Origin: Chiloscyllium plagiosum | Taxonomy: Eukaryota | Length of the DNA stretch: 64,000 nt | Direction: 5' to 3' | Assembly (NCBI RefSeq): GCF_004010195.1 | Contig: NC_057724.1 | Location: 6,948,786 to 7,012,785 of the forward strand | Notes under the pieces: model-generated | Seen by the model: only the letters and a program-made list of their open reading frames with translations | Told to the model about the DNA's origin: nothing | The model's database searches: none | Program-made: the position numbers and the translations under genes | Shown: one piece after another, positions 5,971 to 61,325 of the stretch | Numbering within the stretch: position 1 is the first letter of the stretch | Layout: each line of letters starts with the position of its first letter

Positions 5971-6006
5971 AATCGACGTTTCGGGCATAAGCCCTTCTTC
6001 AGGAAT
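5971..6006 (-). ncRNA. Minimal type I hammerhead ribozyme motif (PLE family A)
   Basis: Reverse complement reads auuc-CUGAAGA-A-GGGC-UUAU-GCCC-GAAAC-GUC-gauu. Confidence 0.75.
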
Positions 6007-6162
6007 CAGCATGGAAACAGACCCTTTGGTCCAAATCATCCATACCAACCAGATATCTTAAAATAATCTCGTCCCATTTGCCAGGATTTGGCCCATATCC
6101 CTCTTAACCTTTCCCATTTATGCCCATCCAGATGCTTTTTAAAATGTTGTACTTGTACCAGC

Positions 6163-6197
6163 CTCCTGAAGAAGGGCTTATGCCCGAAACGTCGATT
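6163..6197 (+). ncRNA. Minimal type I hammerhead ribozyme motif (PLE family A)
   Basis: CUGAAGA-A-GGGC-UUAU-GCCC-GAAAC-GUC. Confidence 0.75.
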
Positions 6198-6577
6198 CTA
6201 CTGTTCCTTGGATGCTGCCTGACCTGCTGCGCTTTTCCAGCACATTTTCAGCTCAGTTTGGTTTCTCGTCAACATTAGCCCCAGAGTGTTGATAGTGGAA
6301 GATTCTTTGATGTTAAAGCCACTGAATGTTGAGGGATGATGTTTGGAAAATCTCTTGTCAGAGATGGTAATTACTTAGTACTTCAATGTTACTTGGTACT
6401 TTTCAGCGCAAACCTGGGTTTTGTCCAGGGCTATGTTGCATTTGGACATGGACTGCTTCACTGTCTAAGGAATCACAAATGCTGCTGGTTATTGCACAGT
6501 TGTGAACATCCCCACTCTGACCTTATGATGGAAGGAAACAGCTGAAGATGATTGGGCACAAGACTTTATCTTCAGGA

Positions 6578-6700
6578 CCACGGGGCTTTTGTGGTGCTGT
6601 GGTAGTGTCTCTATCTCTGGGCCAGGAGACCCAGATTAAAGTCCCACCTGTTCCAAAATTATGTAGTAATATCTCTGAGCAGGTTGATTAGGAAAACATC
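6578..6700 (+). mobile_element. tRNA-derived SINE head of a second SINE family; related copies at about 3478-3530(-), 11555-11670(-), 50255-50360(+), 60950-61080(+)
   Basis: A-box-like TGGTGCTGTGGT and a degenerate B-box; similar motif order in the other copies. Confidence 0.5.
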
Positions 6701-6750
6701 TACCTTAAGGAAGTCCTGCAGTGATTGTCTGAAATTGTGTTGATTGACAT

Positions 6751-6966
6751 GTGTGTGGAACGAGCTGCCAGAGGTAGTGATGGAGGCTGGTACAAGTGCA
6801 ACATTTTAAAAAGCATCTGGATGGGCATAAATAGGAAGGGTTAAGAGGGATATGGGCCAAATCCTGGCAAATGGGACGAGATTATTTTAAGATATCTGGT
6901 CGGCATGGATGATTTGGACCAAAGGATCTGTTTCCATGCTGTGCATCTCTACGACTCTGACTCTAT
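6751..6966 (+). mobile_element. CR1/HER1 LINE 3' end fragment
   Basis: WNELPEVV..AGT..FK.HLD coding end, 3' UTR and GACTCT-type tail. Confidence 0.85.
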
Positions 6967-7225
6967 AACCTCAACCATACCCATTTCTACTAATAATGAC
7001 TCTAACCAATGAAAAGCTTATCCCAACTCCCAATGACTTGGTTTGCTCATGTCCCTTGATAACACACTTGACCAAATGCTGCCTTGGTATCAGGAGCAGT
7101 CTCTCACCATGCCTCTTCCAGTTCAAAGTTCATATTTGGTTCAAGGCTGTTGGTATGAAGAAGCTTGATAGTTATGAATCATTGGAGCATTTAAATATTG
7201 AAGGTCTGTGTGGAAATGAATTTAT

Positions 7226-7315
7226 TGCAAGTTTGCTATACCTAGCACATAATTTCTTTAAAAGTGGTCATGCAAGTTTGCTATACCTAGCACATAATTT
7301 CTTTAAAAGTGGTCA
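7226..7315 (+). repeat. Perfect 45-bp tandem duplication
   Basis: TGCAAGTTTGCTATACCTAGCACATAATTTCTTTAAAAGTGGTCA at 7226-7270 and 7271-7315. Confidence 0.95.
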
Positions 7316-12690: not shown

Positions 12691-12724
12691 ATGCAAGTCA
12701 GAACATCTCTCATGGGTCTGTATC

Positions 12725-13632: not shown

Positions 13633-15536
13633 TCCTAAAACAGTACAGTGAACCAGTTATATTTTCCAAGAATTCACATTGTTTCTCAATTATCACTAAT
13701 GATTGAACGTTTATAGATGACTGTAGTCTTCTTTTTTCCTTTTTTTAATGCTGCTAATCCAGCTCTTAAATGTGGGCTTTGGCATTTCTGGCTCTGTAAT
13801 ACTATCTGAGCAAGTCCCTAACTGTTGGATCTTTAATAAGTGTGCTTTGATCCTCACCCCATTTTCTGCTGGCAGACTTACTATGTGTGTTCTTATTTCC
13901 CGTCTCTGTAACTTTTAATCTATAGTCATCTATTCTTCACTCTTGTTGATTGATTTTTGAACTTGCCCTGTTCCCAGTGTTGACTATTCTCGTGTTCTGT
14001 CATTCATTCATTCACTAGATAAGGATGTCAGCAAGGCCAGCATTTATTGCCCATCCCTAAGTGCCCTGGAGAAGATGGTAGTGAGCTGCTTTGTTGCAAC
14101 GTGTGCGGCCAGCCACAGTGCTACTCGGAAGGGAGTTCCAGGATTTTGATCCAGTGACAATGAAGGAATGGTGATATATTTCCATGTCAAGGTGGCTTGT
14201 GGCTCAGAGGGGAACTTGCAGATTGTGGTGCTCCCATGTATCTGTTTCTCTTGTTCTTCCAGCCTTTAGAGGTTGTGGGATTGGAAGGTGTTGGGAAAAG
14301 AGATTTGCTGAGTTCCTAGAGTACCTCTTGCAGATCTTTCATCGCGATGCCACTCTGCGTCAATCGTGAAGGGAGTGAATGTTGAAGATTGCAATTGAGG
14401 TGCCAATGAAGTGAGCTATTATTTCCTGAGATCCAAGGGATTCCCTCCCTATGGTCCAGTGACTAGGTCAGACTTAATGTGCTTCACCATGCATTATACT
14501 ATCACCGGACATTCACAGTCCACTTGTCTCTGATTCTGTCAGACCTGCTGCCAATTGCCTCTGTGTAGTATGATTCTATCTAGGCTTTTAATTGAAGACA
14601 ATCCACACTTATATCAGTGAACACCAACAACCATTATTAAGTCTATGTATATGAATGAGAATAAGTAAGGAAATTTTTGAAATCTTGTACACTCAAGTCT
14701 CAGTTCCATGTGATTTGTTATTATGGCATAACTCCTTATGCATCTGATCAGTAGCTCTTTTTTAGAAATACAGTTAAGACTTTACTCTGCATCAGCGCCT
14801 CTGACAATATACTCCATAAGTACTATATTGGAATATTATCTTTGTATTTTGTATTCAAGTCACCGGAATTAGACATGATTCACAATGTGCCCACTGAGAG
14901 GCCAAAAGTGCTACCAACTGAGGCACTGTTACATTTTGTGATGCATTTAAAGTGATAACGAATATTACTCAATGCTTAATCCCCTACCACTAACACCCTG
15001 GCTGACACTATTGACCAGAAACCAGCGACATAAATATTGAGGCTACTCAGTCAGAAGCTGTGAACACTATGGTGAGGACATCCTAGCTCCTCGAATCCTA
15101 TCCACTATTTACAATGTACAATCCAGAAGTGCGGTGGACCATGCCTCACTTGCATGTACAGCTCCAACAACACTCAAGAAACTCAACATCATCCAAGGCA
15201 AAGCAGTCCATTTGATTAGCATCTCATCGACCTCTGCACGGTGAAAGCAGTGTAGGCTGTTACAAAGACTTCATATTTAATCATTTTGTGGACTATGTGG
15301 AAAACAGTATTGTTTTATTTTGAAAGAGGCCATTGAAAGGACATTGGACTGATTTTATTAACAAGGCATTTCTTGACTCGGTAAGATGGTGGTAATTCTG
15401 TAGAACTGCTGTGGACAGCTCTGCCTAACAGTCAAGGCATACTAGTGTTTTTTGCCATCCCTGGCCAACTTATGTGGTGGAATTATTAGTTTAAAACCTT
15501 ACAGAACACATATTTGTTAATATTTTGGAGTGGGAA

Positions 15537-15935
15537 GGATGCCAATGGGAAAAGGAGCAAGCAAACAGCAGCAGGGAGGACGCTCCCCTGCGGCACCTGC
15601 CACACCAGACACTGCAGCAACAGCAGCCTCTCCTGACCCCCCGGGGACCTGACAGATTCACAGGAATTGGCTGCAGCGATGGAGAGACTTACCTTGAAAG
15701 TTGGGGCTGCGATTGAGGAGATCCGTTGGGAGATTCGTGCCCAGGTCCAACCTATCGCAATCATGCTGCAGAAGCATGAGCAGGAAATCCAGGGCCTTGG
15801 GGAGAGGCTGGAGGAGGTGGAGGGTCGAACTAAGGCCTCGGAAGCTGTGATGGAGTCCTCATCCAGTCGGATCCAGGTGCTGGAGCGAGAGGTGCGGGCC
15901 TTGTAAAACCATATCGATGACCTTGAAAATCGAGG
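15537..15935 (+). pseudogene. L1 ORF1 N-terminal/coiled-coil fragment
   Basis: Heptad-rich EQEIQGLGERLEEVEGR..IQVLEREVRAL*NHIDDLENRG; DLENR marks the end of the L1 ORF1 coiled coil. Confidence 0.75.
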
Positions 15936-16159
15936 ACAGGATGCCTTGTGGGCCCCCAACTATTTCTTCGCAGGCCAAGCAGGTGGTTGACTTATGCAAG
16001 GTGTTGAGGCTGGTGGATATTTGGAGATGTCTTCACCCTACCGGCAGGGGCTTCACCTTTTTTTCAAACCCACATAAATGTCACACGAGGATTGACTTCT
16101 TTCTGGCTCCCTCGGCCCTTCTGGATACGATTATGGGTTGTAAAATGGGGAATATAGCG

Positions 16160-17890
16160 ATAGAACATAGAACATAGAAGAATATAACGCAGTACAGGCC
16201 CTTTGGCCCTCGATGTTGCGCCGATCCAAGCCCACCTAACCTAAACTAGCCCACTATCCTCCATATGCCTATCCAATGCCCGCTTAAATGCACATAAAGA
16301 GGGAGAGTCCACCACTGCTACTGGCAGGGCATTCCATGAACTCACGACTCGCTGAGTAAAGAACCTACCCCTAACATCTGTCCCATACCTACTACCCCTT
16401 AATTTAAAGCTATGCCCCCTCGTAATAGCTGACTCCATACGTGGAAAAAGATTCTCACTGTCGACCCTATCTAAACCCCTAATCATCTTATACACCTCTA
16501 TCAAGTCACCCCTAAACCTTCCTTTCTCCAATGAAAACAACCCCAAGTGCCTCAACCTTTCCTCATACGATCTTNNNNNNNNNNNNNNNNNNNNNNNNNN
16601 NNNNNNNNNNNNNNNNNNNNNNNNNNNNNNNNNNNNNNNNNNNNNNNNNNNNNNNNNNNNNNNNNNACTTGGGTGGCAACTTTCAGAGATCTGTGTACAT
16701 GGACACCAAGATCCCTCTGCTCATCCACACTACCAAGTATCCGACAATTAGCCCAGTACCCATTCTTTTTGTTATTCTTCCCAAAGTGAATCACCTCGCA
16801 CTTAGCTACATTGTATTCCATCTGCCACCTTTCTGCCCAGCTCTGCAGCTTCTCTTTATCCTGCTGTAACCTGCCACATGCTTCCTCACTGTCAACAACT
16901 CCTCCGACTTTTGTGTCATCCGCAAACTTGCTCACCCAACCTTCTAACTCCTCTTCCAGGTCATTTATAAAAATGACAAACAGCAATGGTCCCAAAACAG
17001 ATCCTTGCGGAACACCGCTAGTGACGGCACTCCATGAAGAAACTTTGCCATCAACTACTACCCTCTGTCTTCTTCCATCCAGCCAATTCCTAATCCAAAC
17101 CTCCAACTCACCCTCAATGCCATATCTCCGTATTTTCTGCAGTAGCCTACCATGGGGAACCTTATCGAACGCCTTACTAAAATCCATATATACCACATCT
17201 GCCGCTTTCCCCTCATCAACCTCCTTCGTCACCTTTTCAAAGAATTCAATAAGGTTTGTGAGGCACGACCTGCCCTTCACAAAACCATGCTGACTATCCT
17301 TGATCACATTATTCCTATCCAGATGTTCATAAATCCTATGCCTTACAATTCTCTCTAAGATTTTGCCCACAACAGAAGTGTGACTCACCGGCCTATAGTT
17401 ATTAGGGTTATCCCTACTCCCCTTCTTGAACAAGGGAACCACATTTGCTCGCCTCCAATCTTCTGGCACTACTCCTGTAGACAACGAGGACATAAAAATC
17501 AAGGCCATTGGCTCTGCAATCTCCTCCCTTGCTTCCCAGAGAATCCTAGGATAATTGCCATCAGGCCCAGGTGACTTATCTATTTTCACCCTTTCCAGAA
17601 TTTCGAACACCTCTTCTCTACATACCTCAACGCCATCCATTCTGCTTAATTGTGACTCAGTATTCACATCCGCAACAATGTCCTGTTCCTGAGTGAATAC
17701 TGACGAAAATTATTCATTCAGTGTCTCCCCAATCTCTTCAGCCTCCACACGCAACTTCCCACTACTATTCTTGACTGGACCTATTCCTACCCTAGTCATT
17801 CTTTTATTCCTGACATACCTATAGAAAGCCTTAGGGTTTTCCCTAATCCTACCAACTAAGGACCTTTCATGTCCCCTCCTTGCTGCTCTT
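16160..17890 (-). mobile_element. Young 5'-truncated CR1 LINE nested in the L1
   Basis: Long open RT frame (16552-17667: KSPGPDG, NYRPVS, QHGF, YMDFSKAFD, GVPQGSVLGP, KFADDTK); CpGs retained; (TAGAACA)n reverse tail at about 16161-16180. Confidence 0.95.
16575..16666. other. Assembly gap (N run) inside the young CR1
   Basis: Run of Ns; both flanks are CR1 ORF2. Confidence 0.99.
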
Positions 17891-20800: not shown

Positions 20801-23244
20801 AATTATGGAACACATTCCCTTGTATTTTTATACAAACATGATGCACCACACAACAGACCATTTTAATAAGACATGGCAGCCCTATTTGAGTAATTTGGAA
20901 ATAGATTTGTCAGTTGTCTTAACTAGAGCGTTTGTTTAACCAGGATGGTTAGATTTGTCAAGCCCTGGGCCCTGGAGGGGGTCTCCTGAGTTAATACGGG
21001 TATATATACAATGCTTCAGTTCCTTTATTTGGGAGCTTTACGTCGGGCATAGCAGTTCTGTATTTTGTGGATTTTTTTGGTTTTTTTTTGCTTTGCTTTC
21101 TTTTTTTGGTGTTGCTTTGCACAGTGTTAGGGTTTGCTTTGCATTATAGGGTAGGTTAATAGTTAGCAGACAGTAGTTGTATTGTAATTTGTGTTTTTCT
21201 TTCTTTTTATTATACTGTTACTTGTTATTGATTTTTTTTTCAATAATTTTATATGTTGGTAAAATTAAAAAAATTTACTAATAAATATACTTACAAAAAA
21301 AAGGCATTTCTTGGTCATCATATTTCTTGTGGCAAATGTTTGTTTACCACAGACTCCTGTGGCCGTCAAGTTTCTTTGCCTGTTCTGGGTATTTGTTTGG
21401 AGTAGTTGGTGACCATTTTGCTGAAGGAACGAAGATTCCTGTTTCTCACATAAATCTTTGTTGTGTATCCAATGAGAAACGCACTTTGTTTTTGAGAGTA
21501 CATTCAGGGGTCTGATGGTTAAGATGATCAAGGGTTATGGGCAGATGGCAAGCCAACCAGGTGGTGAAACATCTCAGTCATGATTGAATGGTGGAGCAGG
21601 CTCAATGGGCTAAATAGTCTAATTCTGCTCCTGCGTCTTATGGTCTTACGGGAAATGGACTTCCCTGGCTTGGCCTGAAGTGATTGCCCACCCCTAATTG
21701 CTCTTGAGAAGATGGTGATCACTGCCTTATTGAACCATTGCAATCCTTAGGATTGGGTTCTCTTTGACCTCTTAACTGTCCTCTGGAAAGGTTCTCAGTT
21801 CTGTGTTTCTGAGGGGAAAGGCATTTTCAAAGATCTCAGAGATAGCTGTCTCTGTATGATGACGTGTCCTCATGTGACAGAATGCCAGACGGACAGTCAT
21901 CTGAACATTCCACACCTTAGCATTTTTGCCTTCAAGAACTAACTATCATTGGTCAAATGTGCTTTTCTTTTTGAAGTGAAATCTATAGAGCGAGAATTCC
22001 AATCTTCCCCTTTTCCAGGTTTGCAATTCCAAAAGGAAGCTATTTATACTTGCCTATTTCGAACTGTGTTATGTTTATACCAAATAATTTTCATTTTCAC
22101 AATAATTTCACAATCGGTTTAGAGTTTACCAAAAGAACTGATTGATGAGCTTTTCATTCTAATTCTGAGTAGAGAAAGCACACAATTGGTTGCATTCGGA
22201 ACTTATGAGACACTTAAACTTTATGTTGTGACAGATGGAATAGTGGGACTACAAGGAGATTGTGCACTCCTGCAGCTTCATGCACACCACAAGACACACC
22301 ACAGGAACTCACCAAGGCTCCTTTGACTGCACCATTCAAAACAACAGCCTCTACCAATTGGGAAGACAAGGGCAGCAGGTACATGGGAACACCATCACCT
22401 CCCCAAGCCACTCACCATCCTGACTTGGAAAGATATTATTGCTCCTTCAGTGTCGCAGAGTCAAAATCCTGAAATTCCCTGCCTAATGGTGTTCTGAGTT
22501 TACCTACAGCACATGGACTGTAACGTTTCAAGAAAGCAGCTTTTCCAGGACAATTAGCGATGTGCAATAAATGCTGGCAAAGCCAGTAATACTCACATTC
22601 CATGAACAAATAAAATATTCGGCTGTAGCTATCTCTGCCCTTCTCTTTACTTTTATACAAATGGCTATGTTCTACCATAATAATTTGTGATATATGTGAA
22701 TATCATTTCTCAGAAGGTACAGATGATTATGGAATTTGATGTCATGATTTATTAACACACTGACGCCTTAGTGGTGACAGGATTGCAATCTCTAACTATA
22801 CCTTTGGCTAATTTCCAATTTTAAATATGAACCTCTGTTCAAGAGAACAACTTTGAAACATGTCAAGCATTTCCAATATTTTTATTCACAATATGAAATA
22901 GAACAAAACAAAATCACTGAATGGTTATAGTGCATCAGAGGCCATTTGACCCATCGTGTCTGCACTGGCTGTCTGAGTAAATACAAGACAAAGACAATTT
23001 GAAATGTTACATTAAGAATTGCACCATCTTCAAAAACAATGAACAAAGGACTTGCATTTATACAGTGCCTCCATCCAATCTCAGGGTAACCCACAGTCCA
23101 TGAGGTACATTTTCATGCACAGTCACCATTATAGCAGAAATAAATTATATGCTTTATATGCTTGAAAAGAAGCAAAATCAGAAGTTGTTGGAGAAACTCA
23201 GCAGGCCTGGCAGCATTTGTGGGGAGAAAACACAAAGATACCTC

Positions 23245-23906: not shown

Positions 23907-24010
23907 ACAATGTGACACTTCATCAGAGTCTGTATTTTTCTCCACAGAGGCTGCCAGAGCTGCTGAGTTTCCCCAGCAATTTCTGTTTTTGTTTCAGATT
24001 ACCAGCATCT

Positions 24011-24052
24011 GCAGTTCTGAGGAAGAGTCACCGGACCTGAAATGTTAACTGT
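24011..24052 (+). ncRNA. Hammerhead ribozyme motif (PLE family C) with 6-bp stem I
   Basis: gcaguu-CUGAGGA-A-GAGUC-ACCG-GACCU-GAAAU-GUU-aacugu; the flanks GCAGUU and AACUGU pair. Confidence 0.65.
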
Positions 24053-24469
24053 AATTTCTCTTTACTGATGCTACCCGACCTGCTGAGATTTTCCAGCAAT
24101 TTTCGTTTCAGATTTAGCGCAGCAGCAGTTCATTTGGTTTTTATTCTGCAGTTTTTTTGTGTTATTATACTTTCAAAGAGAGTTTACTCTGTTCAAGTGC
24201 TGGTCAGAAACATTTATAGGTGGACATTTTTGATGTAAATTACATACAACTATCATTACATCACACACAGTCTGAAATTAGAGGAAAACAGTTTGTTATT
24301 AGATCATTGCATAATAGAAATTGGACTAATTAATTGGTCCAAAACTTTGTGCCATCATTCTGATTTTAACTTTGTCCACCCCAGTCCAACACCGGCACCT
24401 CCTCATCCTGATTTTCAATGACTTGGTGCTACCTTGACTCAATATAAAACCTTGAGCTGAAAACCAGCC

Positions 24470-27600: not shown

Positions 27601-28220
27601 TTTATTAGAATCACAAGATTACCGCACAGGAGAAGGTCATTTAGTCAGTTGTGTCCATGCCAACTCTGTGACAAAGCAACTCGACTATTCTCACTTCCCT
27701 GCCTATCCCCTGCAGTTCACCAAATTGATTTTTCATTTCAGGTGTTTATCTAAGCTTTCTTATTGAATCGGACTTCATCACACTCTCAGGTTGTATTTTC
27801 CTGATTCCAACCACTCACTCAATAAAAACATTTTCCTTCTGTTGGCTGTTGGTTCTTTTACCACTTACTTTAATATGAGGTGAAATGGACTGTGCTGGTG
27901 TCATTTAAATGTGTGAGGTATCAAGAAGCTCTAACAAAACTGGAGTTAATGGAAGTCACAGGATTGGAGTCATACCTAGCTCAAAGGAAGATGATTGTGG
28001 TTTTTGGAGGTAACTCACCTCAATCCCACCACTTCAAAAGCTTGGGCTCAACTATCTTCAGCAGCTTGGTCGATGACTTTCCCTCCCCCACAAAGGTAAA
28101 GGCTTCCTCAGCCCTATATCATATTCAGCAGAATTCACAAATCTCCAGATCCTAAAGCAATCCATGCCTAAATACGGCAAAACCTGGAGGTGCAAGCTTG
28201 GGCTGGTTCATAGCAAATAA

Positions 28221-28520
28221 GGAGGAGAAAGTGAGGTCTGCAGATGCTGGAGATCAAAGTTGAAACTTTATTGCTGTAACAGCACAGCAGGTCAGGCAGC
28301 ATCCAGGGAACAGGAAATTCGACGTTTCGGGCACAGGCCCTTCTTCAGGAACCGCCAAACCACAACAACCCGACGGTCGGTGGAGGAGCGTCTTATCTTC
28401 CGACTGGGAACCCTCCAACCGCAGGGGATGAACTTGGACCTCACCAGTTTCTTCATCCCCCCTCCCTGTTCCCTGGATGCTGCCTGACCTGCTGTGCTGT
28501 TCCAGCAATAAAGTTTCAAC
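28221..28520. mobile_element. Young fold-back PLE family A insertion with GIY-YIG C-terminal fragment
   Basis: 14-bp TSD TTCATAGCAAATAA at 28207-28220 and 28521-28534; inverted arms; middle encodes RRSVEERLIFRLGTLQPQGMNLD, typical of a PLE ORF end. Confidence 0.88.
28316..28352 (-). ncRNA. Minimal hammerhead ribozyme motif (PLE family A)
   Basis: Reverse complement reads uuc-CUGAAGA-A-GGGC-CUGU-GCCC-GAAAC-GUC-gaau. Confidence 0.78.
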
Positions 28521-29189
28521 TTCATAGCAAATAACATTTGTGTCGCACAAGTGCCAGGCATTTACCATTTCAAAGAAGAGAAATTCTCTAAGCTTCACTT
28601 CTCCAAAGGGAAAGGTCTTAGCTTCTCCAAACTGCCAATGTCACTGAAGCTGGAACCATTCTCAGTCAACCTGTTCTGCATTGTCTCTTCAGCCTTTACA
28701 TCTTTTCTAAACTGCAGTGCCCACCTCAAATGGTCCATTTCAAAACATTGTTTCAACTAATTCTAACTGCCACTTTCAATGATAAATGCACAATTAACCC
28801 CAGCTCTCTGTTCATGCATACCCTTTAGAATAGTACCCTTTAATTTAATTTCATTTGTCACTTATCCACCTATTCCATCAGCCCATTTGTCCCTTTGAAG
28901 TATCACTCTTACCCTCAAAATTTACAATTCTTCCAAGTGTAGTGCCACCTTCAAATTTTCAAGTCTAGATCATTAAAATATATCAAGAAAAGCAGTGATC
29001 CGTGTTTCAATCTCTGGAGAAGCCCATTTTATACCTTCCTTCCAACCAAAAGCAACAATTCACTACTATTCTCTTATTAGCTGCCATTCAACCAATCAAT
29101 GATGTTAATGTCTTTGGTTATTCCATAGACTTCAGCTTTGTTGACATCAGAAAAGTGACTACACTTCATTGACTCTAACATTTGGTTAA

Positions 29190-33597: not shown

Positions 33598-34570
33598 GTC
33601 TCCCTAGAACATCTGGATAACAAGGACACCTACACCAGAGTCCTATTTATTGAGTTTAGCTCTGCCTTCAACATCATAATTCCAACAAAACTCATCTCCA
33701 AACTTCAAGACCTAGGACTCTGCTCCCCCCTCTGCATACAGTAAGGATAGGTGACAACACCTTCCGCAAAACAATCCTCAATACCAGTGCCCCACAGGCT
33801 GCTTACTCAGCTACTTACTATATTCCTTACACACTCACAACTGTGTGGCCAAATTCAGCTCTAACTCCATTTACAAGTTTGCTGATGACACCACTGTGGT
33901 TGGTTGGATCTCACACAATGACGAGACAGGAAAATGCTAAAACGTTTAAAGGCATGGTATAAAGACAACAATCTCTCCTTCAATGTCAGAAAAATGAAGG
34001 AGCTGGTCATCAACTTCAGGAAGCAGAGTGGAGGACACATCCCTGTTTGGTGTTGAGATGGAGGTAGTCAAGAGCTTCAAGTTCCTAGGAGTAAGTATCA
34101 CCAACAATCTACCCTGGTCCATCCATATCAATGCTATGGTCAAGAAAGCAAATCAATGCCTCTAGTTCTTCAGAAGGCTCAAGAAATTTGATATATCCAC
34201 AATGACTCTTACCATTTTTTTTGCTGTACCATAGAAACCATCTTATCCGGATGTGTCACAGCTTGGTATGACAACTGGTCTTCCCCAGACCACAAGAAAT
34301 TCTCGAGGGTTGTGAACACAGCCCAGGCAGTCTTCCTTCCATTGACTCCGCCTACACTTCCCACTGCCTCAGGAATGCAGCCAACGTAATCAAAGACCCC
34401 TACCACCCACTTCCATCAGACAGTGGCCTACCAAAACATTCAAGAACAATTTCTTCCCAGCCATTATCAGGCTTACAGATGGACTGCTCATATTTGCAGT
34501 TTTTGAGAAGATTTGTAGCTCAGGTTGTTGTTCAGGTTGTAAGTTTGCCTGCTGAGCTGGCACCTTAGTT

Positions 34571-34612
34571 CCCAGACGTTTCATCACCATGCTGGGTAAC
34601 ATCATCAGTGAG
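34571..34612 (-). ncRNA. Hammerhead ribozyme motif (PLE family B)
   Basis: Reverse complement reads cuca-CUGAUGA-U-GUUACC-CAGCAU-GGUGAU-GAAAC-GUC-uggg. Confidence 0.78.
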
Positions 34613-35088
34613 CCTCTGTTAAAGCGCTGTCCTGCTTTCTATTTGTATGTCTTGGTCTACCAACACACTGAATCAGCTCTTGATTAATCTAAAGGACGCT
34701 GTACCAACAATGAGTAGAACAAACATCGTATACAAAATACTCTGCAAGGACTGCAACAAACATTATATCAGACAGATGGGCAGGAAACTGGCCACTAGGA
34801 TACATGAGCACTAAAAGACACAACCAACTATCACTACTTTCCTTATACACAGACAACGAGGGACACCAGTTCGACGAGGACAATATGTAAATCTTGGGAC
34901 AGGCTAAACAAAGACATACACAGGAATTCCTGGAGGCCTGGCAGTCAAATCAGAACTCCATTAACAAAAACATTGATTTGGACCCCATTTACCAACCTCT
35001 GAGAAAAAGAACTGGAAGTGATATCACCCCACAACAGACCAAACACATAAACAGAAAGCAGGACATAACACCAATGCTTCAACAATGG

Positions 35089-35130
35089 CTCACTGATGAT
35101 GTTGCCTAGCATAGTGACGAAACATCTGAG
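35089..35130 (+). ncRNA. Hammerhead ribozyme motif (PLE family B)
   Basis: cuca-CUGAUGA-U-GUUGCC-UAGCAU-AGUGAC-GAAAC-AUC-ugag; stem I CUCA/UGAG is perfect. Confidence 0.72.
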
Positions 35131-37003
35131 AACAAACCTTCCAGCTCAGCGAGCAAATTTACAACCTGGACTGCACCTCTCTCTGCACCTTCTCTGCAGC
35201 TGTAACACTATATTCTACATTCTGTTCTGTTAACCTGATGTGCTTTTGTAAGGTATGATTTTCCTGGAAAGCAGGCAAGACAATCCTTTCAACATGTGAC
35301 AATAATAAATCAAATTCTACTACATGTCAGGAGCTGCCCAGGAGAAACCCAGGAGAGGATTCAACAGTTATGATCAGATCCCAGAAAAGCAGATTATCTC
35401 TTTTCTGCACTGACAGATCCTGGTGGGTGAAGACCCCTATCAGACCCAGTGCTGGACTGGAACAATCACTTTGGAAATGGGAAGAATGGTTCTGCCCTAT
35501 TGACAGCCAACCCAAAACCACACAAACAAGATGTGGCCAGGTTTAGTTGGGGGAAACCTAATAAGATTTGAGCAGAGGTGTCATGATTTGAAGTTGTGCA
35601 ACATGTTTTTGAGGCTTTTACATTGCCAGTGAGGCATTTTTCCAGGCAGATGATCGCACAGTCTCCACCATGAATGACTTTGTCAAAATGCATAGACAGG
35701 ATCACGAAAAGCACACAGCTTTGTCCGAGACATTTGGATTGAAGGGTGGAGTATTTCACCAACTTTGTCAGCGCTGCACTGGCTCCAACATGTAGAGAGT
35801 GGAGTTGTTGGTAACCATCATGTAGGCCTGGTCCAGCAGAGCATCTGCCTTTATACGCACACAGGCCTGTACTTCCTTTCTGTACTGAAGCAAGAGAGTG
35901 ATTAAAAAGAAAACCTCAAGCTCACAGGGAGACAGGATGGTGCAAAAAGACACCTAGGAGGAGGAGAAGCCACAGATGGCACCCCTAGGTAGGATATTCC
36001 AGAGGTACATAAACCCTCCACCTAGCTACTGCATGTGGGCATCTGTCTGTATATGGGATCGATAGCCTAAGCTAATGCCAACAAGAAAGATTTGTGGCAA
36101 TCAATCTATCAAGGACATCCCAGACACTAAAAGCGAAAATCAATACATGTCAGATGGTGATGACAATGGGCATTTGAAGATATCATTTAACCTACCACAG
36201 TGGATGATGCAGCCTTATATTAAGAAGGTTTCCCTTAAATTAGAAATGCTGGATTCAGACAAAGCTGGTTATGATTTTTAACCACTTACTGAATCCGACT
36301 ATTCACCTGAAGCCTCAGGCTTTTGAATTTGAGGGGCAGGGAGACTCCGAACAGGAGCTGCCCCCAGCCTTACTGCCCACTGTAGACATTTTCAAAGAAT
36401 GTACAAGATGAGAATCAAACTGTTAGGCTGCATCATGAATGCACCTTCTGTGAGCATTAAGTCCAGGAATGGGGCATATAATTCCAGCTATGGAAATTCA
36501 GAATACAAAGTGTGGACCCTCACTCCTGCAGGTGGCCCATTCTTTCCCAGCATTTTCTTGTATTTTAAATTATTTTCTGTTTCTGCTTTTCTGTCTCTTC
36601 TTTCTCTGTCATCTTCCTTGCCCTCCCTTTAATTCTCTTTCTCTGTCTAATTTGGCTCTAAAACATTCGATTTGGTTTCTGCTCTTTCCTTCTGATTTTC
36701 TCCCTCTCGCTTTGGTTAAGGAGACAGGTCTGAGCAACCAATGCTCAGGAGGTTTCAGATGCCCCATTGATGTTGTAACATCATTATGAAACCGCATTGG
36801 CTGCAATTTGTGGTGCAGGCATTAATGATCTCTAGGAGGAAGTCCAACCCTTAGTATTCACGGCCTGATGTTTAATCCCCACACTAACCCCACACCCCCA
36901 TCCCAAATCTAGCTCAGTGGAAACATGGGAATCAGTAATTTTTGTTTCCAGTTACAATAAGATGGAGAATAAGTGAGAGTGTTGTATCTAAACATATAAT
37001 CCA

Positions 37004-37884: not shown

Positions 37885-38080
37885 GATTTGTGGGTGTTGG
37901 GAAATCTGAAACCGAAACAGTGATTGCTGGAGAAATTCAGCAGGTCTGTCAGCTTTGGTGGAGAAAAGGCAAAGTTCACTTTTCAGAATGGAAGTGTCAT
38001 TGGCCCTGAAATGTTGACTCCGCTGTCTCTCCACTGATGCTGCCATATCTGCTGAGTTTCTCCAGCAATATCTATTTTCA
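37885..38080. mobile_element. Palindromic PLE family C mini-element, diverged
   Basis: TTGCTGGAGAAATTCAGCAGG and CTGCTGAGTTTCTCCAGCAA are inverted arms around a decayed hammerhead (GTCATTGGCCCTGAAATGTTGAC). Confidence 0.65.
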
Positions 38081-42358: not shown

Positions 42359-42430
42359 AGTTCTGAGGAAGGGTGACTGGACCCGAAACAGACCTGCTGA
42401 GATTTTCTAGCAATTTCTATTTTTTTTTTG
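42359..42430 (+). mobile_element. PLE family C fragment with hammerhead core, cleavage triplet deleted
   Basis: CTGAGGA-A-GGGT-GACTGG-ACCC-GAAAC joins directly to AGACCTGCTGAG. Confidence 0.6.
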
Positions 42431-46703: not shown

Positions 46704-46782
46704 TACTGATGAAGGGTCACTGGATCTAAAATGTTGACACCGCTTTCTCTCCACAGACCTGCTAAGTTCCTCCAGTGATTTC
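46704..46782 (+). mobile_element. PLE family C fragment with decayed hammerhead
   Basis: CTGATGA-A-GGGTC-ACTG-GATCT-AAAAT-GTT (G12 mutated), followed by TTTCTCTCCACAGACCTGCT. Confidence 0.55.
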
Positions 46783-46933
46783 TTAACCATTCAGATCATT
46801 TGTTATCTCTATGAGACAAGTATTTATGAACAGCAGATATGGATGATACCGCTAAAAGAATTAGAGGTGCTTTCTTCTGATGTGAAACCATCGCTTAAAG
46901 TCTCAGAGTTTCTGAATTTTTGAATTGATGAAA

Positions 46934-49563: not shown

Positions 49564-49596
49564 ATAATTCTTAAAATGGTGGAGAATGGAAAATCA

Positions 49597-49751: not shown

Positions 49752-50504
49752 TTAAAGACACTGAATTTCACAGTCTGGCTAAAAGTCAAAATGTCACGAT
49801 TCTACAGGGGCTGATAAGGAAATATTTTCAGACAGACAATCATTGATCTTTTGAAAAGGTAACTTCAAAGCTAAGAAGGCTCACATTAAATGGAACATGC
49901 TATTGGGATATTGTTGTGAGTGTGCAGGAGTGATTTGTTCCGCGTGAAGTAACTAAAATGCAGGAGTGTACAGACATATATCCCAGACATAGACTGTTAC
50001 TTGCCAACCAGAACAACATGAAATGATTGATGTATCCTGCTGAGAAAGAAAATATTTTCAATGATCACTGCACCGGCAGATACTCCATAGAGAAAGTCAA
50101 TTTAAGACAATCAAGGTGGTGGCCATCAGAGAGAGCAAAACTAAAATAAAGAGAAGTGGTTTGGCTTATTTGAATGCTAGGGAGAAATACACAGTCTAAT
50201 TCATGAGCAGAAATCTCACCTGAATCTTTTAAGGGGATGGAGAAAACTAAACAGTGAAGGGCAGTGGTAACATCCCTGTCCCTGGATTGGGAAGTCTAGG
50301 TTCAAGTGCACTACAAGTGTATAATAACAGGTCTCAACAGGTAGATTAGAAAAATAGGTTAGAATTTTAAAAACAAAGTTCAATGAAATCGGGTTGTATT
50401 TAAACCCAAGGAAATGGTGCAAGGAATGATAACGGCATAACAGAATCACACAGACGTTAAAACATGGACGGAGGTTAAGTGCAGGGTGAGCAGCAGCATG
50501 AGTA

Positions 50505-51144
50505 CAGGCCATTCTGCTATAACGCGACAGTTGGACAAACGGGCAGGAAGCTAACCACCAGGATACATGAGCACCAACTAGCCACCAAAAGACATGACCA
50601 ACTATCCATACACACAGACAAAAAGGGACACCAGTTCAACCGGGATAATACATCCATCCTGGGACAGGCCAAACAAAGACACGGGTGGGAATCCCTAGCG
50701 GCCTGGCATTCAAATAGGAACTTCATTAACAAACATATAGATATGGACCCCATTTACCAATCTCGCAGAAACAGAACTGGAAATGATATCACCCACCACA
50801 ACAGACTAAGACACATAAATAGCAAATGGGACAGAACACCAGCTCTTCACTGGATACTCACTGATAATGTTACCTGCTTGGTGAGGAAACATCTGAGAAC
50901 AAATCTACCAGCTCAGCGAGCAACCTGATCCATGAGCTGAGCAACAAATCTTCTCTAAAATCGTGACTGTTGTGTTCCTCTACAACCTTGCCTTACAGAA
51001 ATCTGCGCTAGGGAAGATTGCTAATAAAAAATTGCTATACCTGTTTCATAGAAAGTTCACATTATCCAAACAACGCCCACAATTCGTCAATTGTGTTATA
51101 GCCAATTCACGCTGATAAAACGCATGTTATAGCACAATGGCCCA
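50505..51144. mobile_element. TA-flanked MITE related to 30434-30652, containing a PLE insertion
   Basis: TA-CAGGCCATTCTGCTATAACGCG on the left and CATGTTATAGCACAATGGCCCA-TA on the right. Confidence 0.72.
50534..50961 (+). mobile_element. 5'-truncated PLE family B (GIY-YIG C-terminal half and pLTR with decayed hammerhead at 50857-50897)
   Basis: GQTGRKLTTRIHEHQLATKRHDQLS..ILGQAKQRH; ctca-CTGATAA..GAAAC-ATC-tgag; approximate TSD CGCGACAGTTG/CGTGACTGTTG. Confidence 0.85.
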
Positions 51145-52119: not shown

Positions 52120-52335
52120 TTCGTCAACAAAAACAGTCCGCTGAAGAAGCTTAGCAGGTTTGACAGCATGTGTGGAGGGAAAAAAAAGAGTTGACGCATC
52201 AAGTCCAGTGACCCTTCAGGACTCACAATGTTAACCCTGCTTTCTCTCTGTACAGATGCTGCCAGATCTGCTGAGTTTCTCCAGCGCTCTCTCTTTTTGT
52301 TTCGGATTGCCAGCATCCACTGTACTTTGTGCATA
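52120..52335. mobile_element. Palindromic PLE family C mini-element, diverged
   Basis: AGCAGGTTTGACAGCAT and ATGCTGCCAGATCTGCT are inverted arms around a reverse hammerhead stem (GTCCAGTGACCCTTC). Confidence 0.6.
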
Positions 52336-52821: not shown

Positions 52822-53180
52822 ACAAAATAGAGAAACAGGAGGCTGGAAGAACACAGCAAGCCAGGCAACATCAGGAGGTGGAGATGTCAACATTTCAGGT
52901 GTAACCCTTCTTCAGGGACTGGAGGTGGGTATGAGGGCATCTGTAGGTAGAGGAGGTGGTGGGGGGGGGGGAGCAGGGTGGCAAGGTGAGGATAGGTGAA
53001 GACAGGTCGAGGGTATGACCTGGTTGGTCAATGGGAGGAATGAATCCAGTTGGTAGCTGAAGGGAGGGTTGATCAGAGGAATGGAAGGAATGGGAAGGGG
53101 CTGGGAAAGGAGTCGGGGGATGGGGAGGAGGTTATTTGAAATTGGGCAACTCAATGTTGAGTCCACCGGGCTGTAGGCCT
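52822..53180 (-). mobile_element. PLE 3' end with hammerhead at 52886-52918
   Basis: Reverse complement reads CUGAAGA-A-GGGU-UAC-ACCU-GAAAU-GUU. The minus strand near 53175 reads LQPGGLNIE, a PLE ORF end. Confidence 0.75.
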
Positions 53181-56485: not shown

Positions 56486-56546
56486 CTTCAAGGATGTTGG
56501 AATCATTTGCAGGGTAGTGAAATCTCAAGCCTTTCACATAGATGAG

Positions 56547-56688
56547 GAGAAAGTGAGGTCTGCAGATGCTGGAGATCAAAGTTGAAACTTTATTGCTGGA
56601 ACAGCACAGCAGGTCAGGCAGCATCCAGGGAACAGGAGATTCGACGTTTCGGGCACAGGCCCTTCTTCAGGAAGGGCCTGTGCCCGAA
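56547..56688. mobile_element. Young minimal fold-back PLE family A insertion with hammerhead (56640-56672, minus)
   Basis: TSD ACATAGATGAG at 56536-56546 and 56689-56699. Perfect 20-bp inverted repeat at 56646-56665 and 56671-56690. The left arm differs from 28224-28352 at 2 positions. Confidence 0.88.
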
Positions 56689-57217
56689 ACATAGATGAGC
56701 CAACAGCTACTCAGTACAACCACTGAAAGGCTTTTCAGTATGTCGGCTTCAGTAATTAATGATTCTGCTCTCAGCTTGTTGACTCTGATGAATTCCACAG
56801 AGCTGGGAAAATTCATGTGGTGTTGGTCAGCCTGGGCTGTCGGTGCTAATTCCTCCAATTCTTTCCATTCATTCCTAGGATGTGGGTGTTGCTGGCTGAG
56901 CCAGTATTCATTTACTCATTTCCAAAGTTCCATTGTTTTTTACACACCAGGGCTTGAAACATTTCTGTGAAAGAATGCTTCAGCATCAGTGTGTCACCCA
57001 TGCTGGTTACAGATATTTTTCAATCAACTTGTTAACTTCTCAAGGTAACTGGGGTGTGAGGAATTAATGACAGCCCTGCCAACAACACCCCCATCCCAGA
57101 AATGATTGCTTTCAAGGTAATGTTCTTGCTTTTGAGTCTCCGTGGATACATGAGAGAGAAGGAATAGCAGGATATAGAAGGGAGCAGAGTGGGAAGAGGT
57201 AAGAGAGTCCCTTCAGT

Positions 57218-57490: not shown

Positions 57491-58267
57491 GAGCCAGTGT
57501 GCTGTCAGTGGAGTGGTAGACATTTACTTGAAGTATAAACACTATTAGGGACTATCTGGAGTCAATGTTTGTGCACTGCAGATTCTAGATAATTTTATGT
57601 AATGTATGCAAGCCTCATACAACATTTAAATCAATATTCCCACTGATGGGCCTATATCTCAGGTTGCTGATGGGAATCGATCTCAGTGTTCTAATTTAAG
57701 ATTTAGTCTCTAACCAGGTGCCAGCACAAAGAATAGACCTTTCCAAACCTCAGACTTTCTGAGCAATCTCTCAACAGTTCACAAACTACTAGAAGCCACA
57801 AACCAATTGCAGTCTATAGATAGCTCTTGGCAGCAATACCAGAAGGTCCTGTATTGTCGATTGTACTGATGCAGTTAGTCAGAATTATCCTGCTTTATCA
57901 GATCTGGGACCCAAGCTTCCTTTATGTATTTAGGGAGAAATGTTGATATAAAGGCTTTCCCTGAAAATAATCCAAAAACAATTTTCAATGATGGATAAAT
58001 GTTGAATACCCAAGCAGAGCCTGTTTGCAGGAAACAAAAATACTTCATTCTAATTCAAGTTAGAATTCATTGAACTTTCAGTTGACCTGAAAAGTAGGTC
58101 GACATAAGTAGTTTTGACAATGAATTACCTTTAATATGTATCATCATTAATTACACTTCAAGCAAAATTTGCATTTAAAGAGGAGATTATTTTCCATTTA
58201 AGCACTTTGCAAACCCCATCATTGTGGAAACTGAGTACCTCTATGTCTTGACTTTCAGCTAAGCCAG

Positions 58268-58435
58268 CGCTGGGGACTTGCATTTGATTCCACCCTCGGG
58301 CAACTGTCTGTGTGGAGTTTGCACATTCTCCCCATGTCTGTGCGGGTTTCCTCTGGGTGGTCCAGATTCCTCCCACAACCCAAAGATATGCAGGTTAGGT
58401 GGATTAGCCATGGGAAATGGAGGGCTAAAGGAATG
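58268..58435 (+). mobile_element. HE1-type SINE fragment
   Basis: TGTGTGGAGTTTGCACATTCTCCCC..AAAGATATGCAGGTTAGG. Confidence 0.8.
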
Positions 58436-58440
58436 GGATA

Positions 58441-59135
58441 GGAGATCAGAGTCAAAGAGGGCGGTGCTGGAAAAGCACATTTGGTCAGGCAGCATCTGAG
58501 GAGCAGGAGAATTGACATTTCGGGTATAAGCCCCTCATCAGGAATGGGGCGGGGGGAGGCGGAGAGATAAATGGGGTGAGGTAGCTGGGAAGGTGATAGG
58601 TAGATGCAGGCAGAGGGTGATAGTGAGAAGTCAGAGGGGAGGGTGGAGCAGATAGATGTGAAGGAAGATGGACAGGTAGGACAGTTCAAGAACACGGTGC
58701 CAAGTTGGAGGGTTGGATCTGGGATGACGTGGGGGTCGGGAGTTGAGGAAATTGGTGAAGTCAATGTTGATGCTGTGTGGTTGGAGGGTCCCAAGGTGGA
58801 AGATGAGGTGTTCTTCCTTCAGGCGTCAGGTGGCTGAGATTTGGCAGTGGACGAGGCCCAGGACTTGGATGTCCTTGACGGAGTGGGAGGGGAAGTCGAA
58901 GTGGTTGGCCACAGAGCGGTGGGGTTGTTTGGTGCATGTGTTCCAGAGATGTTCCCTGAAGCATTCTGTGAGTTGGCGTCCTGTCTCTCCAGAGAAGACC
59001 ACATTGAGAGCAATGGATACATTAAATGGGGCATTTGGATCTCCGTGTGGAGTTGGTCACCAGAGATGGAAACAGAGAGTTCCAGAAAGAAGAGGGAAGT
59101 GTCCAAAAGGTCCAGGTGAACTTGAGGTCAGGGTG
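58441..59135 (-). mobile_element. PLE family A 3' portion (GIY-YIG remnant, pLTR, hammerhead at 58511-58545)
   Basis: Minus strand reads EEHLIFHLGTLQPHSINIDF; reverse complement auuc-CUGAUGA-G-GGGC-UUAU-ACCC-GAAAU-GUC-aau. Confidence 0.82.
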
Positions 59136-59274
59136 GAATGTGTTCTATCCATGGCCCTTATGATTTTACAAACCTCTATAAGATTACCCCTCAGCCAAGG
59201 GAAAATAGCCCCAGCCTACTCAGCTTCTCCCTTTAACTCAAATCCTCCAACCCTTGTGAAGGAGACTTTGGAGT

Positions 59275-59945
59275 GCAGGTTCATAGCTCCTTGAAAGTAG
59301 ATTCATAGGTAGATAGGATAGTGAAGATGGCATTTGGTCTGCTTACCTTTATTGGTCAAAGTATAGAGTACAAGAGTTAGGAGCTCATGTTGAGGGTGTA
59401 CTGGACATTGGTTAGGCCACTTTTGGAAAATTGTGTGCAATTCTGGTTTCCTTCCTATCAGAAGGATGTTGTGAAAGTTGGGAAGGTTCAGAAAAGATTT
59501 ACAAGGATGTTGTCAGGGTTGGAGGATTTGAGCTATACAGAGAGGCTGAATAGGCCGGGGCTGTTTTCCCTGGAGCGTCAGAGGCTGAGGAGTGACCTCA
59601 TAGAGGTTTATAAAATCATGAGGGGCATGGATATGGTAAATAGACAAAGATTTTTCCCTGGGGTGGGGAAGTCCAGAACTAGAGGGCATAGATTTAGGGT
59701 GAGAGAGGAAAGATATAAAAGGGACCTAAGGGGCAACATGTTCACTCAGAGGGTGGTACGTGTATGGAATGAGGTGCCAGAGGAAGTGGCGGAGGCTGGC
59801 ACAATTGCAACATTTAAAAGGCATCTGGATGGGTATATGAATAGGAAGGGTTTGGAGAGTAGATTAGGTTGGAATATCTGGTTGGCATGGATGAGTTGAA
59901 CCGAAGGGTCTGTTTCCGTGCTGTACATCTCTATGATTCTGTGAT
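59275..59945 (+). mobile_element. CR1/HER1 LINE 3' fragment, preceded by a short antisense CR1 piece (59143-59255)
   Basis: ORF 59387-59899 reads LVRPLLENCVQFW..RFTRML..DLIEVYK..WNEVPEEV. Confidence 0.92.
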
Positions 59946-61196
59946 GCATTTAAGATATTTATATTGTTCCATTAAATTTTCAAGAATAAGTAAAATCTGA
60001 ATGAGTGAGACTCCACAGCTGTTAAATTCTATTTTCAGTACCAGAGGGGTTGAATAGTTTATCACAGGATTGAAAAGGTAGTTACTCTGGAAGAGCAAAA
60101 CGCAAACTTTCTCTGGTGAATTTAAAACACTGATTCTGTAAATTTGAAGATCACCTCTCCTCACATGGCAATGTTCAAGCAAAAGAAGCAAAGCATTCCA
60201 AATAACAGCTTCCTCATTTATGCGTCTCGCTCCACATGTGCCTTCACTTGAAGCTGCTGTCAAATTGACATGTTAATAACAGGGAGTATGCTTGATTAAT
60301 TTTCACCATTAATTTTACTGCAAAAGCCCGGTCAATACATGTCCAAGTCAGGAGAGTGCATGATTTGGACCAGAATTTGGAGGTTATACTGTTCAGGATT
60401 TGGTGGCATGGAAAAGAAGATTGGCAAGGTGTTTTAATCTTATTCCTTGATGATAAATTTTCAGACAATAATTAATAAATTAATCATACATTTCCCTGAC
60501 TAGAAACAGTTCTTTCTGACCAGTCCTGTTATTGTGAAATGTATAACCTTGAATTAATAATCAACTGATCCAAACATTCAATTAAAATCATTCTTTTTTT
60601 AAACCGCCAGGAAATTAATTATAGTAATTATAACAGAATTATGAATTTCTCATTTGTATGGAATTGCATTGAAAGTAAAATACATCTTAATCCAGCAATC
60701 TTTTTAATTCTGCAGGGAAATATGGGCTGGACTGAGTTTCCTAACTATGTGTATCTCAGGTTCAAAGTTCCCAACAGCAGAGGGATACTCGAGTCTTTGC
60801 CCCATGGAGTGGATTGATGATTTTTCTTTGAGGAATATTCAACAAGGATAGAAGACCAAGTACTAGGACTAATTAAACGCATTATTGGGACATAATCTGG
60901 CAGCTTGTCATGAGGCACAAGGTTTAAAGATATGTGCAGAGTATGGTTGGAGGCTCCATGGTTTTGTGATGCAGTGGTAGCATTCTTACTTTTGAGCAAG
61001 AAGTCCTGGGTTCAAATCCCACACCATCTCTTGCTGGCCATATTAACCCTGTTTGTAATGTGACCAGACGTGAAGACCACCGGACTGCAAACCTTTCCAA
61101 TACACCCAATGGCAGACTGTAAGAGCCATGAGTGCTTCCTGGTCCGCCATCCCACACAAGGCAATGGAAAATGAGTGCGGACTAATCCGCTGGCAA

Positions 61197-61325
61197 GAGA
61201 AAGTGAGGACTGCAGATGCTGGAGCTCAGAGTCGAGAGCGTGGCGCTGGAAAAGCGCAGCAGGTCAGGCAGCATCCGAGGAGCAAGAGGATTGACATTAC
61301 GGGTATAAACCCTTCATCAGGGAAT
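61197..61325 (-). mobile_element. PLE family A 3' end with mutated hammerhead
   Basis: GAGAAAGTGAGGACTGCAGATGCTGG start; reverse complement CUGAUGA-A-GGGU-UUAU-ACCC-GUAAU-GUC. Confidence 0.8.

Follow-up and report, generated by a model that had tools for sequence, protein, structure and literature searches.

Does the window, by which we mean the whole 64-kb stretch of DNA analysed here, hold ribozymes that cut host transcripts, or remnants of ribozymes that no longer act? The first-pass annotation had claimed at least 12 hammerhead motifs from three families, and we found all 13 listed sites (quoted numbers mark the low end of each motif, 0–6 nt off). The three families were borne out by their mutually unrelated tails, a family-specific tail of 75–125 nt lying 3′ of each motif. 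The descriptor used for the scan was strict, requiring CUGANGA, a single extra base, at least three pairs in stem II, GAAA, a self-pairing 15.2/16.2 dinucleotide and UH, and 7 of the 13 sites passed it; a mean of 0.13 matches was expected from 30 third-order Markov simulations. The minimal hammerheads stand far above chance, yet roughly every second site on the list holds a broken copy: six sites (61293–61320, 50861, 46706, 24017, 42363 and 35093) failed, each as stated in its line below. An Rfam scan with E up to 1 found no hammerhead family in the window. The features are as follows, with the strand in brackets where there is one.

5862..6266: whole head-to-head family A insertion with a 15-bp target-site duplication (5862–5876 and 6252–6266).
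5878..6006 (−): family A pLTR end (hammerhead and ~100-nt tail), left arm of the head-to-head insertion; motif C3–N17 at 6002–5975 complete, ACGU.
6007..6163: 157-bp spacer between the family A arms, an inverted 96% copy of 6785–6941.
6164..6253 (+): right arm of the head-to-head insertion, a family A pLTR end with motif 6166–6193 complete, ACGU.
23929..24111 (+): family C, a tail-only piece and then motif 24017–24046, AUGU; the second pair of stem II is mismatched.
28207..28534 (−): family A insertion; motif 28321–28348 complete, ACGU; tail 28223–28320; inverted tail arm 28465–28522; 14-bp target-site duplication.
34504..34653 (−): family B motif 34575–34608 complete, ACGU, in a pLTR end that forms the left arm of a head-to-head pair.
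34654..35167 (+): family B right arm, a decayed GIY-YIG domain and then motif 35093–35126; core intact, tetramer ACAU unable to self-pair.
42363..42416 (+): family C copy in which the NUH region and the start of the tail are deleted; its core and 4-pair stem II remain intact.
46706..46790 (+): family C copy; G12 changed to A.
50479..50970 (+): family B copy; GIY-YIG-like reading frame 50479–50928 (no Pfam match) and motif 50861–50893 with G8 changed.
52831..53115 (−): older family-A-like copy with an ORF-end remnant (LQPGGLNIE-like); motif 52889–52915, AUGU, 1-pair stem I.
56536..56699 (−): family A fold-back mini-insertion; motif 56643–56670 complete, ACGU; own stem II inverted ahead of the motif; 11-bp target-site duplication.
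58447..58841 (−): family A copy with a decayed GIY-YIG C-terminus (LKEEHLIFHLGTLQPHSINIDF) upstream; motif 58514–58541, AUGU; stem I lost by CpG decay.
61197..61321 (−): family A copy with a broken core; motif 61293–61320, A13 changed.

The very large genomic load that had been proposed was confirmed. In the whole genome (3.56 Gb), 206,984 core matches were found against 403 reversed-pattern controls, and one 28-mer had 33,157 exact copies against 0 in controls. Together with the excess of strict matches in the window, these counts refute a chance origin, to which we assign practically no probability, although the core has only ~14 fixed bases and a one-mismatch descriptor gave about 1 match per simulated window. 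The proposed density of about one motif per 5 kb holds only when broken copies are counted (a 1.02-Mb sample has 335 tails, or one in every 3 kb); strict motifs occur once per 11.1 kb (92 in 1.02 Mb) and exact core patterns once per 17 kb genome-wide. The number of motifs, at least 206,984, is more than 20 times the highest count in the accessible text of the founding paper (Cervera and De la Pena 2014, PMC4209133), which gives ~9,000 for Xenopus tropicalis and ~4,000 for coelacanth, with the reservation that the descriptors differ. That text names no cartilaginous fish, and among the listings of our literature search none reported a count of such size for a cartilaginous fish.

The core CUGANGA...GAAA...NUH was complete in type I order in the same 7 window sites and in the 92 strict motifs of the 1.02-Mb sample. 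Stem II began with G in 91 of these 92 and was closed by C or a CpG-decay U; the extra base between A9 and 10.1 is built into the descriptor. Stem I, which the descriptor does not require, had at least two pairs in 76 of 92. The first-pass annotation had described helix III as a palindrome only, which would need a dimer, and the palindrome at 15.2–16.2 was confirmed: ACGU is perfect in five of the 13 window sites (those marked complete above) and weakened to AUGU in two (52889–52915 and 58514–58541, both minus strand). Among the 92 strict motifs the dinucleotide was CG in 59, GC in 18 and wobble or other in 15. Pairing at these positions is demanded by the descriptor, but the switch from CG to GC between families is not imposed, and helix III covaries, with CG in families A, B and C and GC in 18 of 18 matches of family D, which lies outside the window. 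Stems I and II also covary between families. Four families with unrelated tails have the hammerhead core in common, which, together with this covariation, speaks for selection on the core in master elements.

The assignment to Penelope-like elements (PLEs) as minimal type I hammerheads was upheld for families A and B by GIY-YIG ORF ends just upstream, a placement already described in 2014. At L225, a family A copy is preceded by an RT thumb, a CxxC linker and GIY-YIG. For family B, a copy stands behind a frame with RT and GIY-YIG (L027; Pfam RVT_1, E 1.8e-8). The latter frame (L027:2787–3962) has no linker, although the copy appears internally deleted there. Family B may belong to the Penelope/Poseidon clade, a label that comes partly from motif likeness. 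No ORF was seen upstream of the three window copies of family C, whose tail resembles that of family A by eye. The Zn-finger-like linker between RT and GIY-YIG in family A, with a CKTC motif ahead of GIY-YIG, resembles that of Neptune-clade PLEs as described in the available part of Craig et al. 2021 (PMC8557442); this clade call comes from one frameshifted copy, at L225. Family B resembles Penelope/Poseidon PLEs, including Anolis PAc (Frangieh et al. 2024, PMC11167929, accessible text), in its position behind RT and GIY-YIG, in the tail behind the hammerhead and in showing no sign of a cut-RNA template. Pfam searches of nine window frames gave two LINE-type RVT_1 matches only and none for the GIY-YIG fragments, so the latter were assigned by motif. 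Across 264 kb, masking and ORF listing revealed no clear exon among the frames listed. Target-site duplications are present at young copies.

We conclude with fairly high confidence that the motifs are minimal type I hammerheads, carried in the shortened terminal repeats of two or more kinds of PLE, and that once inserted they are likely inert. This type of repeat has been known since 2014, so the identification is correct but not new. Shared with the min-HHR pLTRs in the accessible text of PMC4209133 are the type I core, the extra base between 9 and 10.1, the G10.1–C11.1 pair, the short helix I and the palindromic 15.2–16.2, as well as the prevalence of single motifs from truncated elements with some opposite-strand pairs 100–700 bp apart. 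Helix II has 4–5 pairs in families A, C and D, unlike the 7–8 pairs of Schistosoma given there.

The 5′ ends of the copies indicate which RNA was copied. Among 291 family A copies, 121 begin at −9 to +2, 74 further upstream and 96 further in, and 11 begin within 2 nt of the cut site; the count leaves out A5, which has no upstream reference, and copies adjoining an assembly gap. In families A and D the ends cluster just ahead of the core with a sharp peak at −4/−3, and 3′ ends favour ~+85–95 and +124. Family B differs from A and D in lacking the peak (3 of 54 copies in the peak region) and in its reach far upstream (41 of 54). Because the ends accumulate immediately ahead of the core rather than at the site of cleavage, the template RNA copied by the elements was likely uncut. 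A small bump at +28/+29 (10 of 291) was considered as a trace of cut RNA and rejected: genome-wide, boundary patterns numbered 2,768 at −4, 526 at the cut site and 634 two bases behind it, the last two having the same expected pattern share. The position of the ends at the ribozyme front supports, from genome data, the in vitro finding that uncut RNA of the Anolis Poseidon element served as template (PMC11167929, accessible text). The hammerhead of that element cleaved only when its protein was added (same paper).

From the in vitro work on the Anolis element, we infer that a dimeric RT-endonuclease would nick both DNA strands and that priming would occur in the tail, ~100 nt behind the ribozyme, on uncut RNA. 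Judging from the 5′ peak, copying may often end by run-off where helix I begins, at the 5′ end of the RNA, which would yield very many 90–130-nt stubs and fold-back pairs. Selection would maintain the core in master elements only, where two terminal repeats per transcript, or help from the element's protein, could allow pairing of the palindromic helix III and cleavage. Stubs within host transcripts would usually be partnerless, would often be trapped as hairpins with their own inverted arms, and would lose G12 and the palindrome through CpG decay.

The sharp 5′ peak and the favoured 3′ ends could also be explained if the short copies came from separate, non-autonomous SINE-like masters that start at helix I, rather than from run-off of full elements. 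Such an origin is unlikely, given that identical tail variants are also seen attached to long stretches of upstream repeat and ORF sequence, that many family A copies reach further upstream (74) or start further in (96), and that arm junctions vary from copy to copy.

The first-pass annotation had proposed that the motif load could cut host transcripts. This was not supported: core bases showed no excess conservation over flanks, an outcome that the annotation itself had named as refuting, antisense bias was non-significant and dimer partners were nearly absent. Across copies, core bases were no more conserved than flanks once base type, CpG state and subfamily were matched. Of 245 copies of family A, 51 carried a changed G12, which does not differ from the 272 changes among 1,259 CpG cells elsewhere (p 0.86). 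At core positions outside CpG, matched for base, changes numbered 62 against 71 expected in family A and 18 against 17.7 expected in family B. Before base matching, family A cores were changed at 3.4% and tails at 4.8% (p 0.006). Pooled family D had shown fewer core changes than expected (42 against 59.9, P 0.009), an excess of conservation that was gone once subfamilies were split and gaps omitted (18 against 17.2; 11 against 5.4). Copies were retrieved through their tails, which biases these comparisons toward conserved tails, and A8 and A9 were omitted from the column counts (different register). In inserted copies the catalytic G12 decays like any CpG, and the copies decay neutrally. No purifying selection on the core was detected at inserted loci, a family-wide result that a few selected loci would escape.

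A dimer requires a partner. None of 92 random strict motifs had a same-strand strict motif within 1 kb, whereas 59 had an opposite-strand copy; within 5 kb, 30 of the 92 had a same-strand strict neighbour. About half of the copies stand head to head (130 head-to-head against 17 tail-to-tail pairs). For introns we used eight spectrin-gene intervals, delimited through Pfam matches to exons, which contain 42 intact motifs. The antisense bias looked for in intact intronic motifs was not significant (17 sense, 25 antisense, p 0.28), at modest power: a sample of this size would miss a weak bias. Control repeats gave sense:antisense counts of 28:38 (CR1-type) and 33:49 (SINE-type). Solo copies of all kinds leaned to antisense (23:41, p 0.033), a lean due to broken copies (16:33) and not to intact ones (7:9). 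Three same-strand pairs occurred among the 42 motifs, two being separate insertions and one spanning an assembly gap. By local folding, stem II had P ≤0.01 in four of the five ACGU window copies. We did not use homodimer minimum-energy folds, because they do not model the double hammerhead.

It has to be asked whether sense-strand intronic motifs nonetheless find neighbours to pair with, in cis or in trans, so that host pre-mRNA is cleaved often enough to matter. The size of the genome-wide load, the 17 intact sense-strand motifs in the spectrin-gene intervals, the same-strand neighbours within 5 kb, two sense-strand family A motifs separated by 992 nt in one interval and the presence of family sequence in poly(A) RNA reads would all favour such an effect, and PLE hammerheads have been reported to cut as dimers (PMC6765202, accessible text). 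We nevertheless consider it highly improbable: G12 and the core decay neutrally, an antisense bias specific to intact motifs is absent, and the duplex energy is only −1.7 kcal/mol for ACGU and +2.6 for AUGU. Reads of either direction run through the cut site and show no pile of ends there, which weighs little, as the library was a fragmented poly(A) library of one sample and hides ends. In accessible text, min-HHRs are described as having low or no activity (PMC4209133) and 1 of 9 Xenopus dimers as cutting (10.64898/2026.07.22.740005).

The stubs might instead be silent in most cells and cut when the element's protein is made, in germline or embryo, and acts as a chaperone for their fold. The protein dependence of the Anolis hammerhead and the retention in stubs of the tail, thought to be the binding place of the element's protein, fit this, as does 28321–28348, the best-folding copy in the window (stem II P 0.69, stem I of 5 pairs). 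Such conditional activity is very unlikely, as there was neither a selection signal against sense-strand intact copies nor an excess of copy ends at the cut site; from the latter, cut RNA would rarely be template even in protein-bearing cells. That a minority of sense-strand intronic copies, partnered or folded by protein, cuts host pre-mRNA is quite unlikely. If true, the effect of a ribozyme load on long introns could be studied in this genome as a natural experiment.

RECK-type intronic hammerheads of amniotes are reportedly ultraconserved. As in these domesticated ribozymes (RECK and others, PMC6155905, accessible text), the core may lie inside host genes here; unlike those single conserved loci, the motifs belong to repeat copies, lack a helix III of their own and show no purifying selection. 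Like the non-LTR retrozymes in the available text of Li et al. 2026 (10.64898/2026.07.22.740005), whose survey includes one chondrichthyan genome, the copies are non-coding, pLTR-derived and type I, with evenly spread monomers, but retrozymes are defined by tandem ribozyme-bearing units and the window copies are solo or inverted. We found no tandem units of complete hammerheads, judged by the lack of same-strand partners within 1 kb among the 92 random strict motifs. With its many young copies, the genome is suited to tests of the hammerhead's role in these elements. The source of the spacer at 6007..6163, at 6785–6941, is presumably a CR1/L2-type LINE end; the next best match to the spacer in 1.76 Mb of sample was 85%.

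Every CUGANGA word on both strands of the window was passed to a strict minimal-hammerhead descriptor (one extra base, stem II of at least three pairs, GAAA, self-pairing 15.2/16.2, UH). Seven of the 13 hammerheads listed in the first-pass annotation passed, against a mean of 0.13 in 30 Markov simulations of the window; with one core mismatch tolerated, 10 matches were found versus a mean of 1.0 (15 simulations). The other six are defective: a base of the core is altered, stem II is broken, the cut-site triplet (NUH) is deleted or the tetramer cannot pair with itself. The perfect palindrome ACGU is kept at 5/13 sites and has decayed at its CpG to AUGU at 2/13. The proposed division into three families was borne out: the tails of A and B are unrelated, and C is distinct in both stem II and tail. 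Families A and B showed every tested feature of the minimal hammerheads of Penelope-like elements (PLEs). An Rfam scan of the window detected none of the hammerhead sites. Further family C remnants, absent from the original list, lie at 37990-38073, 52227-52285 and 23929-23984.

Across the 3.56-Gb genome, one family A 28-mer has 33,157 exact copies, 99,670 family A cores have a GGG/CCC stem, a 25-nt tail word occurs 115,713 times and one narrow family B pattern gave 1,639 matches. A family-free core pattern, which fixes stem II pairing at the first pair only, matched 206,984 times (reversed controls: 403), whereas the founding paper gives ~9,000 motifs for Xenopus and 4,000 for coelacanth (PMC4209133). 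A sample of 17 blocks (1.02 Mb non-gap; the window plus 100 kb in either direction, and sixteen 50-kb blocks at round coordinates) yielded 335 tail copies, and 92 motifs there passed the strict descriptor. It also includes a fourth group, family D, which is not in the window and has the palindrome AGCU in 18/18 strict matches. These (L076 in the C10 block and 17 others) have stem I CAC/GUG and the cut triplet CUA.

Decayed GIY-YIG C-termini lie immediately upstream of family A copies 58541 and 52915 and family B copies 35093 and 50861. Outside the window, an element in genome piece L225 with an RT thumb, CKTC linker and GIY-YIG domain is terminated by a family A motif, and a 392-residue frame in L027 with RT and GIY-YIG motifs (Pfam RVT_1 match) has a family B motif at its end. 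For family C, no ORF association was established among window copies. The carriers fit Neptune-type and Penelope/Poseidon-type elements; these clade names are based on the linker described in PMC8557442 and on motifs taken to be characteristic of the clades, rather than on a tree. Young copies in the window carry an inverted arm and target-site duplications (15, 14 and 11 bp). At L225:3100-4600, a family A element of 1.4 kb whose core is complete lies on the sense strand of an intron, ~0.6 kb behind a spectrin-like exon; family C pieces and an inverted arm surround it. Upstream of L060:8019 and L048:6547, a pyrimidine tract with an AG, resembling a splice acceptor, lies 17-28 nt ahead of the core in long family A copies; the Drosophila element has an intron end at helix I (PMC4209133). 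No joint matching this site was found in the reads of one poly(A) single-cell run.

Between families the core is invariant and the tails are divergent, with covariation in helix III and in stems I and II: the master elements have been under selection. The inserted copies have not. The first-pass annotation had proposed conservation of core over flanks as a check, and among copies we found no excess. In family A (300 copies from 1.76 Mb), CpG-sited G12 was altered in 51/245 copies versus 272/1,259 other CpG cells (p 0.86). Non-CpG cells were altered in 62/1,837 core versus 540/11,201 tail positions (raw p 0.006); the core is A-rich, and after base matching 71 core changes were expected (P 0.15). 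Family B had 18 changes versus 17.7 expected. Pooled family D subfamilies gave 42 versus 59.9 (P 0.009), a deficit that disappeared on splitting by subfamily (substitutions only: 18 versus 17.2 and 11 versus 5.4). Because copies were detected by their tails, those whose tails are conserved are favoured, which makes the test somewhat conservative.

Dimer cleavage requires two motifs on one strand. No strict same-strand partner was found within 1 kb for any of 92 random strict motifs (0/92); the count rose to 21 at 3 kb and to 30 at 5 kb. An opposite-strand copy lay within 1 kb of 59/92. Among opposite-strand pairs of one family, 130 were arranged head to head and 17 tail to tail; the gap was at most 10 nt in 94/135 such pairs. 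In computed local folds, stem II probability was at most 0.01 in four of five perfect window copies, blocked by the inverted arm in three and by a different local helix in one; copy 28348 reached 0.69. For the four-base duplex of helix III, the computed energy is -1.7 kcal/mol with ACGU and +2.6 with AUGU. According to PMC4209133, PLE minimal hammerheads show no activity as monomers and low activity as dimers, and in another study one of nine Xenopus dimers cut (10.64898/2026.07.22.740005). Retrozymes require tandem units, a layout that these copies lack. In a spectrin-gene interval, piece L210 (gC41 block) has two complete family A motifs on the sense strand, 992 nt apart (gene-sense 92262 and 93254) and separated by an inverted arm; the pair is a candidate natural dimer.

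Orientation was counted in eight intervals (738 kb) bounded by same-strand spectrin-repeat exon matches. The antisense bias anticipated for intact intronic motifs was not significant (17 sense versus 25 antisense, p 0.28; 17 versus 21 among those with stem I). The corresponding counts were 61 and 75 for broken copies, 28 and 38 for the CR1-type control and 33 and 49 for the SINE-type control. Within the modest power of this comparison, intact motifs are thus avoided no more than the other repeats. Solo copies of every kind tilt antisense (23 versus 41, p 0.033), owing to the broken ones (16/33; intact 7/9). In the poly(A) run, 2,475 reads on a family A copy, mostly derived from other copies, span the cut site both ways (mean depth 607 and 447). 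No site where many molecules start or stop was seen on that copy, a weak result from one sample and a fragmented library. With no partners within 1 kb, neutral copy decay and no intact-specific antisense bias, the suggested load of ribozymes cutting host transcripts was not borne out. These hammerheads are a very abundant set within the known PLE minimal hammerheads, likely inert once inserted.

Among 291 family A 5' ends, 121 fell at -9 to +2 from C3 and 74 lay upstream of that range. Another 57 were internal to the core or stem II, 11 came no more than 2 nt from the cut site, and 28 were past it. Family D had 36/78 ends in the same peak and no end at the cut site, whereas the peak was absent from family B (3/54). 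Genome-wide boundary patterns gave 2,768 matches at -4, 526 at the cut site and 634 at the position two bases further on; the -4 pattern catches ~1/4 of random flanks and the others ~3/8 each, and as they fix differing bases the -4 to cut-site ratio is rough. A cut template would put ends at the cut site, and no pile is seen there, so the copied RNA was likely uncut. According to PMC11167929, the Anolis element is primed internally, behind the hammerhead; both nicked strands are extended, the template is uncut, and the ribozyme needs the protein in order to cut. By analogy, we infer the same route for these elements: cDNA would be primed within the tail and run off at an RNA start placed presumptively at the front of helix I, and two cDNAs would be joined head to head. 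Two hammerhead arms are separated by the spacer 6007-6163, which matches 6785-6941, ~520 bp beyond the insertion, in inverted orientation at 96%; the element likely copied nearby host DNA during insertion. Spacers matched their own 5-kb flanks at ≥93% in 4/28 tested, some of which may be element copies.

The window also holds other repeats, of which the tRNA-like stretch is probably a SINE head.

Other repeats in the window
15486-20939, + strand: decayed LINE with ORF1-like and RT frames (RVT_1 at 18644-19444)
16241-17709, - strand: frame of a CR1/L2-type RT interrupting the decayed LINE
62123-62563: tandem repeat with a 21-bp unit; several frames are open on each strand
60960-61029, + strand: tRNA-like stretch (Rfam 26.3 bits, under the gathering score)
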